Below, piece after piece: positions 1,750 through 20,736 of a stretch of 64,000 nucleotides of DNA. The stretch is from positions 1-64,000 of IMG/VR virus record IMGVR_UViG_3300047565_000101; one strand, 5' to 3'. Position numbers and translations under genes: made by a program. The first letter of the stretch is position 1. Every line of letters starts with the position of its first letter. The notes under the pieces were generated by a model. That model had not been told where the DNA came from. It did not search any database and worked only from the letters and a program-made list of their open reading frames with translations. This DNA comes from a virus. Lineage: Duplodnaviria; Caudoviricetes.

Positions 1750-1936
1750 CCCTATCCTGTAAGAAGTACCAACGCCAATTTAATGGGACGACTTCTATGT
1801 TGCAGTAGGGCCGATTAATAAGTCTACGAGCAAACTAACTTACTAATCTGATATATGAGGCTTTACATAAGCTCGTTGGCCTCCAGTTGTCCCCGTCGGG
1901 AGTCAGTCTATACACCTGCCACTCAACCTTAATATC
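1750..1936 (-). ncRNA. Putative multi-domain structured RNA between tRNA-Leu and tRNA-Trp
   Basis: Three abutting stem-loops (1850-1936, 1813-1848 with 12-bp stem, 1750-1810) with cross-complementary segments. Confidence 0.55.
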
Positions 1937-2768: not shown

Positions 2769-2885
2769 TTATTCTTCATTCTGGCTAGTAGTATCTTTAT
2801 CTTTTTTAATCTTATGCGTATTATCACAATATGGATATGATTGTGACCTACCGCAAAAACATTGCTTTGGAGGGATATCTACCAT
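2769..2885 (-). CDS. Minimal CDGSH-type (NEET) 2Fe-2S domain protein
   Basis: MVDIPPKQCFCGRSQSYPYCDNTHK fits C-x-C-x2-S-x3-P-x-C-D-x-T-H. Confidence 0.75.
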   Translation of the reverse strand: MVDIPPKQCFCGRSQSYPYCDNTHKIKKDKDTTSQNEE

Positions 2886-3574
2886 TATTCACCGAATACA
2901 GTCTTATATGTAATTGGGAATGCATCCTTTGTCATTGTCTTTACCGCCTCAGCATAATCTCTAATCTCAGACTGAGCATCACCCTTTAGTCTTTGATCTA
3001 AGAAATTAATTACACCTTGCAAGCTTACTGTCCATCTCCATCGAACATACATCCCATATGCTGGCAAGAATAGGCGAGCCTGCTCTGGTGCTACACCAGC
3101 TTCAAGAGCCTCCTTATAGAGTCGATTACCAGCCCCTGCAATATCAAAAAGCTTATTAGTAAATCTGCCACCAATATGCTCTGGTAGCACTGGACCCGAA
3201 CCTTGCTTACTATTTTCTGGCTTTGATCTCCACTCATCTCCAAGTGGGATATAGAATTCTTCTGCCTCTGTAATGTAACGTCTTGAAGACTCATTCCATC
3301 CGCTTTGATCATCCATATGAGTAGATGAGACAGCATACTTCCACCATTGTCTTGCTACCATTAATGGCGCATAAACTTCAAATGTAAGAGCAGCATGTCT
3401 AAATGGAGAAGTATGATTTTCTCTCCACAAGAAATCGATTAGCTTATGATCCTTCTCGCTAAGCTCGCTGGACTCCTTATCGTATGAAACTCTAGCAGCA
3501 TTTACAATTGATAAATCTGATCCAAGAGTATCAACTAACCGCACATATCCTTTATCTAAAACATCAATCTTCAT
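2885..3574 (-). CDS. thyX: FAD-dependent thymidylate synthase ThyX
   Basis: IVNAARVSY, HTSPFRH, PLMVARQWWKY, WNESSRRY, EQARLFLP, AQSEIRDYA. Confidence 0.95.
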   Translation of the reverse strand: MKIDVLDKGYVRLVDTLGSDLSIVNAARVSYDKESSELSEKDHKLIDFLWRENHTSPFRHAALTFEVYAPLMVARQWWKYAVSSTHMDDQSGWNESSRRYITEAEEFYIPLGDEWRSKPENSKQGSGPVLPEHIGGRFTNKLFDIAGAGNRLYKEALEAGVAPEQARLFLPAYGMYVRWRWTVSLQGVINFLDQRLKGDAQSEIRDYAEAVKTMTKDAFPITYKTVFGE

Positions 3575-20199: not shown

Positions 20200-20736
20200 T
20201 TAAGCTTGTTCCTCTTCGATAACTACAGCCTCGACTACGCCTGTAATTTGTGAAAGTCTACGAGCCACATCTAACTTACACTTAGGACATGTCGATGTAA
20301 CCTCTTTTAGAATCTTGACTAGAACATCTTGCTTTCTTTCTGTCTCAGCCAACTGTGTAGCGAGCTCATTATTTTCAAGAACTCCGACTGATTGAAGCAT
20401 TGCAATTCTCTTTGTCTCAATATCTGCAATGAGCTTTAATGCACCTGACTTAATACCAAGTTGCCCAGCCTGATCCGCATCTTCTACGGTTTTCCAAGCT
20501 TCTTTAATAAGCATAGCATAATGCTGGTCAGCTCCAGAGATTGCCTCTTTTGCACGATCACGCATGGTGTTGTCGTTATGGACGACATTCTTCCATTCGT
20601 CTATAAGCTCAAGGACTTCTTTGCGCTGGAAACCAGTTAGGGTTGCAATTTGTGTGGCAGAATTACCCTGTAGTAGCTTTTCAACTACTGCATTCATTCT
20701 GTCCATATGCTGTGGTAAATCAATTTCCATTGTCAT
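20200..20736 (-). CDS. HTH/coiled-coil protein, probable terminase small subunit
   Basis: N-terminal HTH (GNSATQIATLTG); directly upstream of terL. Confidence 0.55.
   Translation of the reverse strand: MTMEIDLPQHMDRMNAVVEKLLQGNSATQIATLTGFQRKEVLELIDEWKNVVHNDNTMRDRAKEAISGADQHYAMLIKEAWKTVEDADQAGQLGIKSGALKLIADIETKRIAMLQSVGVLENNELATQLAETERKQDVLVKILKEVTSTCPKCKLDVARRLSQITGVVEAVVIEEEQA

Follow-up and report, generated by a model that had tools for sequence, protein, structure and literature searches.

The window, meaning the whole stretch of 64,000 nt analysed here (positions 1 to 64,000 of an IMG/VR virus record of 104.8 kb, with an estimated completeness of 97%), begins with a cluster of tRNA genes. 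Every one of them lies on the minus strand, as do all the RNA features of the window described below. Read along that strand, tRNA-Asp (2015–2089) is followed by tRNA-Leu(tag) (1937/8–2011), a gap of 191 nt (1746–1936), tRNA-Trp(cca) (1674–1745), a second gap of 160 nt (1514–1673), and then tRNA-Ser, tRNA-Tyr and tRNA-Gln. The remaining tRNA–tRNA junctions in the cluster measure 3–4 nt, and most of those in related arrays 0–4 nt. A consensus scan found no promoter- or terminator-like sites within the cluster. An initial annotation had described the Leu–Trp gap as one RNA of ~190 nt made of three domains. It had placed the bounds of the element correctly, since the gap starts one C past the discriminator of tRNA-Leu and the final helix stops 4 nt short of tRNA-Trp. 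The gap is real; its content, however, is not one RNA but two units. The first is a structured RNA gene of ~125 nt, here called module A (1810–1936), which comprises domains 1 and 2 of the annotation; the second is the former domain 3 (1746–1812). They are treated as separate because domain 3 is restricted to one lineage, and because contigs from relatives skip exactly positions 1743/1747–1813. When the region 1200–2200 was compared with Rfam 15, only tRNAs were matched, and nothing in the gap was recognised at the gathering score or at E values up to 10; the same was true of divergent members of the family. ARAGORN found neither a tRNA nor a tmRNA in the gap.

The phage bearing this cluster encodes Pol III alpha, DnaB, primase, RecA, ThyX, ribonucleotide reductase, GMP reductase, GroES and WhiB, together with a CHAP endolysin and an ORF of tape-measure size (2152 aa). 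Its major capsid protein is 57–59% identical to those of Streptomyces phages of the Stanwilliamsviridae, and every DNA run in which the stretch was found is a freshwater or drinking-water metagenome; the hosts are probably freshwater actinobacteria. When window 2885–3574 is compared with L003, a close relative, ThyX and the tRNA array stand in opposite order: the array lies downstream of ThyX in the window and upstream of it in L003. Elsewhere in the genome, at 64.6–72 kb (L186:643–7909), a run of ORFs includes six matches to the 2OG-Fe(II) oxygenase family, with adjoining glycosyltransferases and methyltransferases.

Homologs of module A were collected from loci around relatives of the neighbouring ThyX gene, from three pattern scans of IMG/VR and from one pattern scan of metagenomes. 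The first searches rendered 50 distinct sequences, which make up alignment A3. Three divergent copies (type II; G009, L218 and L219) were found later, that of G009 (81.5 bits) in a search of the whole records of relatives with the covariance model R1; two further pattern scans for loop variants returned this same lineage only. Altogether, module A is present at about 60 loci in freshwater phage contigs, corresponding to 53 distinct copies. The window copy, with 146.7 bits against R1 and all its helices intact, belongs to the family as defined below. L100 was also found not to be a member. No bacterial genome was found to contain module A when a degenerate pattern scan was combined with model R1; the six bacterial matches to the degenerate pattern were attributed to chance, with nhmmer scores of ≤13.6 bits and no match to R1. 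A blastn search against public phage records matched tRNAs only.

Every homolog occupies a slot between two tRNA genes. Module A starts between 0 nt (36 cases) and 4 nt after the upstream tRNA as ended by ARAGORN, and in 38 of 46 loci the next tRNA begins exactly 4 nt past its last helix (P4, see below). This tail reads R-C-N-N in most loci and is mostly RCUU (ACUU or GCUU); in the lineage of the window it is replaced by the domain 3 insert. The neighbouring genes are diverse: at least eight types were found upstream (Leu(tag), Leu(taa), Glu, Gly, Ile, Lys, Arg and Asn) and at least twelve downstream, including Trp, Glu, Lys, Ser, Gln, Leu, Gly, Tyr, Arg and Asp. Module A is single-copy wherever present. 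It behaves as a cassette that moves among phage tRNA arrays as a tRNA gene does. One example is G001 (L185), a complete phage of 100.6 kb that has only 13 of 152 ORFs in common with the window phage and has only two tRNA genes, Asn and Gln, which flank module A (G001:10312–10431). Among near-complete relatives that had not been picked for module A, it was present in two (G002 and G009) and absent from five (G003, G006, G007, G008 and G011), and it was also absent from three cultured Streptomyces phages (TunaTartare, Mildred21 and Jada). Module A is therefore accessory among related phages of ~100 kb, and this patchiness, with none in the cultured Streptomyces relatives, indicates that it is probably exchanged horizontally between phages.

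The structure of module A was tested on alignment A3 with a model of six nested helices plus a loop–loop helix. Of the cells in this model, 95.3% were paired, as against 32–44% when the partners were slid by 1–3 columns. Compensatory changes, affecting both sides, were seen at 23 pairs, and none of 500 shuffles matched the alignment in any of five measures. The 5′ domain (1850–1936), which is supported by covariation, contains P1, P2 (enclosing P2a and P2b) and P3. P1 is a helix of 5 bp, GAUAY/RUAUC (1936–1932 with 1854–1850; 99.6% of cells paired). This is the GATAT/ATATC stem of the initial annotation, and it covaries, with U-A in 28 sequences and C-G in 21. P2, GGUUG/CAACU (1928–1924 with 1889–1885), is paired in 99.2% of cells. 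Of the two helices that it encloses, P2a (3–4 bp, within 1918–1904) covaries strongly, while P2b (UCCC-GACG-GGGA, 1901–1890) is 96.5% paired and shows a C-G to U-A change in five sequences; in the divergent copies L145, L119 and L138 the distal part of the P2 arm consists of one hairpin. P3 (GAGGN/N′CCUC, 1883–1879 with 1861–1857) is a 5-bp helix closed by a 17-nt loop and paired in 100% of cells, its N-N′ pair (60–80) appearing as six pair types; in the type II copies it is fully compensated, as GCUGG/CCAGC or GUUGG/CCAAC. The 3′ domain is the P4 hairpin (1848–1813), with 12 bp and a conserved 12-nt loop, AGUYUGCUCGUA. It is 99.3% paired with compensatory changes at 9 of its 12 pairs, so the 12-bp hairpin proposed earlier is real. 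With the distal P2 arm variable, P1, the base of P2, and P3 and P4, including the loops of these two, make up the conserved core.

The second closing stem that had been proposed for domain 1, AGGTT/AGCCT, did not hold. It was paired in 83.6% of cells, and its U-G pair was unpaired in 36 of the 50 sequences because the partner column belongs to P3; the true helices in this part are GGUUG/CAACU and GAGGN/N′CCUC. A second GUUG/CAAC pairing (columns 16–19 with 61–64) was discarded, as its 5′ side varies without compensation. Also discarded was a start-stop mini-ORF (an SD-like GGAGG, then AUG-UAA), which is not conserved, the AUG being AUAG or ACAG in many copies. Two of the checks suggested in the initial annotation gave opposite outcomes. 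While the comparison of homologs showed six covarying helices, the folding energy was no better than that of shuffled controls, either for the 191-nt gap (z +0.28) or for a 128-nt core (z −0.25), and the reverse strand of the gap was likewise no better than its shuffles; judged by the energy criterion of the initial annotation, the element would not have passed. With single-sequence z values like those of shuffles, the support for the fold comes from the comparison between copies and not from folding energy. In L145, a GC-richer homolog, the minimum-energy fold coincides with the comparative model (z −2.5).

Given its position in a tRNA slot, module A might be thought a degenerate or unorthodox tRNA gene, the more so since some tRNAs of related arrays do escape ARAGORN (such as the one at L031:1155–1226), or else a spacer that folds by chance. 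Both ideas are barely credible. The interval 1746–1936 has no match to a tRNA model even at E values up to 10, the covarying architecture is not a cloverleaf, and the existence of about 60 conserved copies excludes a chance spacer. An assignment of module A to the tRNA family (RF00005) was accordingly refuted, there being no tRNA-model or ARAGORN match and no helices compatible with a cloverleaf.

The loops of P3 and P4 are conserved and mutually complementary: in the 50 main-group sequences the consensus is CA-ACGRGC-nnnnGUAAA for P3 and AGUYU-GCUCGU-A for P4, which allows six pairs, and the sole variation in this helix is an A or a G opposite U. The loops were unchanged when left free in the search pattern. 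The two strands, ACGAGC in the P3 loop (1871–1876) and GCUCGU in the P4 loop (1826–1831), are pairable in all 53 copies. The corresponding loops of the type II copies are CAAAAGGCU... and AGUUUCCCUUUA, and a helix can be drawn in the same register (A-U, A-U, A-U, G-C, G-C, C.C; that is, AAAGG:CCUUU). Compared with the main group, both partners differ at three of the six pairs and one pair is lost (C.C), this covariation coming from one divergent lineage of three sequences. The long-range ACGAGC:GCUCGU pairing of the initial annotation is thus supported, and, according to the sequences, the loops of P3 and P4 are able to pair in a 6-bp kissing helix, a loop–loop pseudoknot. Given the lengths of P1 plus P3 (10 bp and the loop) and of P4 (12 bp), both loops would be able to meet inside a single molecule, which would then be compactly folded.

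The same two loops could, in principle, pair between molecules, hand in hand as in phi29 pRNA or the cages of ROOL and GOLLD, so that module A would form rings or cages as an RNA-only homo-oligomer. Each molecule has two conserved loops that are mutually complementary and covary, and the phage-borne, tRNA-adjacent ROOL and GOLLD RNAs form homo-oligomers (PMC12286853). The helix lengths, however, suit an intramolecular contact equally well, and the module A RNA is small; we regard assembly of this kind as very unlikely.

These elements define module A as a previously uncatalogued RNA family, with helices P1–P4, pairable P3 and P4 loops that are conserved, and placement in a tRNA slot, where the RNA ends in a 3′ tail of 4 nt.

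Domain 3 behaves differently. It is a facultative irregular hairpin of 62–67 nt (1746–1812) between module A and tRNA-Trp, confined to the window, L003/L110, L099 and L116, and missing from 49 of the 53 distinct copies. It is single-copy in the genome, its fold has a z of −0.62, and it has a closing helix and a 4-nt tail (AUUU) to itself, as a separate slot unit would; in relatives, the RNA-library contigs pass over 1743/1747–1813. According to the initial annotation, the CGTTGGT of domain 3 would pair with GCCAACG in domain 1, as an alternative to the loop–loop helix, and the whole would be a three-domain RNA of ~190 nt or a switch. In the window the CGUUGGU of domain 3 is indeed complementary to GCCAACG, overlapping the ACG of the kissing segment, and one RNA-library contig spans 1770–1938 unbroken. 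This pairing is nevertheless available in four distinct copies only, and in L003 two of its seven pairs are lost with no compensation. Since domain 3 is lacking in 49 of 53 copies, in which the domain 1 segment stays conserved, the alternative pairing is not a family feature, and a switch with two alternative long-range pairings finds no place in nearly all members. With domain 3 also having a closing helix and tail of its own, a single three-domain RNA is most improbable, and the comparison of sequences largely refutes the switch as a property of the family. Domain 3 would instead be a separate, lineage-specific passenger in the next slot, outside the conserved architecture of module A.

Other slots in these arrays hold further RNAs of this kind. 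The Trp–Ser gap (1514–1673) contains module B, a second conserved non-tRNA RNA of 139–165 nt with a conserved 3′ core of ~105 nt and an optional internal hairpin; its motif GGGGCAACUAGGAG resembles GGGGACAACUGGAGG of module A. Among complete genomes, both modules are present in G000, G017 and G018, five have A only, and G003 has only a weak B, so that modules A and B occur independently. An additional module of ~72–80 nt was seen in related tRNA slots (L047:3580–3659, L058:3256–3444 and L035:5132–5339), where no Rfam tRNA-model match was obtained at E values up to 0.05; the arrays therefore host several families of passenger RNAs. The sequence at L031:1155–1226 is a tRNA with 47 bits in Rfam that ARAGORN had missed, which means that long gaps in the arrays are not always non-tRNA RNAs.

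Sequences of module A are found in RNA libraries. Six freshwater metatranscriptome runs hold part of the stretch, and contigs of four of these, from four studies, contain module A; being assembled contigs, they show the sequence in libraries and not ends, strand or stability, and DNA carry-over is possible. One contig of 184 nt matches 1813–1938 with one difference, and others, which lack domain 3, run across module B, tRNA-Trp and module A. Stretches of the cluster with no cover in these contigs were not counted as evidence. Module A is most likely co-transcribed with the tRNA operon. The earlier proposal of an undescribed phage non-coding RNA in the tRNA operon thus stands, given the lack of an Rfam match, the strong covariation and the RNA-library contigs, although the RNA is neither of ~190 nt nor a switch.

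The 3′ end of module A has a layout that recalls that of the neighbouring tRNAs. In a tRNA, the acceptor and T-arm stack comprises 12 bp, and in the arrays that contain module A the tRNA–tRNA junctions mostly read N73, C and then 3 nt. Module A ends in a 12-bp helix, a purine, in most cases a C, and 2 nt. P4 with its R-C-N-N tail thus copies the 3′-end layout of the array tRNAs, and this suggests that the RNA is released by tRNA-processing enzymes. In the mechanism we propose, module A would be transcribed within the tRNA precursor and set free by the enzymes that mature the flanking tRNAs. The 3′ processing of tRNA-Leu(tag), which lies directly upstream, would define the 5′ end of module A, with RNase Z or exonucleases acting there, while the RNase P cut at the 5′ end of tRNA-Trp, downstream, would set the 3′ boundary of the spacer RNA. 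P4 and the R-C tail, by imitating the 12-bp acceptor/T-arm stack and N73-C74, may serve as a handle for processing and stability. The mature RNA would then act in trans, most probably by binding a conserved protein of the host or the phage as a decoy or cofactor.

Several features of module A would also fit an element that acts purely in cis on the tRNA precursor, as a folding insulator or processing spacer, and has no function once released: it is always found between tRNAs, P4 and the tail copy the layout of a tRNA 3′ end, it has no promoter or terminator of its own, and the ORFs scanned revealed no partner protein. A spacer would hardly need, however, two loops, 12 and 17 nt long, together with several junctions, all near-invariant across phages sharing few genes; most tRNA junctions in the same arrays need only 0–4 nt, and related complete genomes do without module A. 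We consider a purely cis-acting role quite unlikely. It is because two loops and several junctions are conserved across phages that share few genes that we favour a trans-acting RNA with a conserved partner over a mere spacer. Overall, module A is a structured RNA gene of the tRNA slot whose product is probably excised from the tRNA precursor, stable and trans-acting, an interpretation in which we place moderate confidence and whose trans role we infer solely from the anatomy of the RNA.

No direct lead to a partner emerged from the phage genome. Neither Ro60 (TROVE), RtcB, RNA ligase nor CCA-adding domains were detected among the about 110 ORFs scanned. When seven genomes with module A were compared with five without it, a comparison confounded by the carriers being closer kin of the window phage, no RNA-related domains appeared in the ORFs enriched with module A. 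A search for antisense targets in the phage genome rendered matches of 9–10 nt only, which is the chance level. On the minus strand, positions 20254–20265, inside an ORF, carry 12 nt that also occur in the loop and stem of P4 (GCTCGTAGACTT); this was rejected as an antisense site, being of the same sense as the module A RNA, and is probably due to chance.

The likeness of P4 to a tRNA 3′ end may be taken further. The helix and its R-C tail could be matured and CCA-tailed as a minihelix, with the kissing loops replacing the D-loop/T-loop elbow. A 12-bp helix followed by purine-C corresponds to the acceptor/T stack followed by N73-C74 in the neighbouring tRNAs, the lengths of P1, P3 and P4 are conserved, and RNAC of phage T4 also has a tRNA-like T-arm. 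Module A is, in addition, accessory and probably transferred horizontally, as is typical of counter-defence cargo. Against this, it has no T-loop sequence, cloverleaf or match to a tRNA model, and its tail is usually CUU and not CCA, so mimicry of the tRNA 3′ end and elbow seems unlikely. It is similarly unlikely that the aim of such a mimic would be to occupy or divert a tRNA-binding host enzyme or a defence toxin that targets tRNAs. If true, however, tRNA arrays would carry an RNA-based counter-defence against an enzyme of freshwater Actinobacteria or a toxin directed at tRNA ends.

As for known systems, the trans-acting, tRNA-processed RNA that we favour is most easily compared with the RNAs of phage T4 named RNAC (species 1, 139 nt) and RNAD (species 2, 119 nt), which, like module A, are non-tRNA RNAs within a tRNA cluster and abut tRNAs. 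The T4 cluster and the window alike carry two such RNAs, in the window modules A and B. The roles of RNAC and RNAD are still unexplained (PMC3014915; PMC9697503). No homology to them was found, since R1 finds no match in the T4 region (L180) and the folds are unrelated; RNAC has a genuine T-arm (GGGUUCGAAUCCC) while module A has none, and T4 differs from the carriers of module A in phage lineage and host phylum. As an analogy, the T4 RNAs are closer to module A than GOLLD and ROOL, to which the initial annotation had likened it. That likeness holds for the context, GOLLD and ROOL being phage-associated, often adjacent to tRNA genes and highly structured; it does not extend to the RNA itself, for which their covariance models gave no match and which is several-fold smaller. 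Moreover, GOLLD and ROOL form multimeric cages (PMC12286853). The pRNA of phi29-like phages is likewise a phage RNA of ~120 nt with a helical junction and two mutually complementary loops, but it comes from small podoviruses, is located outside tRNA arrays, and has no Rfam match to module A. YrlA, a bacterial and phage Y RNA-like RNA, is also small and structured, occurs alongside actinophage tRNA arrays and includes a tRNA-like module; matches to its model (RF02553) stayed below threshold, at ~23 bits where the gathering score is 69, and fell for the most part on the flanking tRNA genes of the relatives' loci.

That phage tRNA clusters may contain small RNAs other than tRNAs, as RNAC and RNAD of T4 do, has been known for about 50 years. 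The present results indicate that an unrelated lineage, formed by freshwater phages probably infecting actinobacteria, carries its own families of passenger RNAs, and module A adds a candidate family to RNA catalogues. Why structured RNAs reside in the tRNA slots of phages, whether as processing handles, decoys or RNA assemblies, is a general question that module A, a compact RNA with natural compensatory variants, makes testable.
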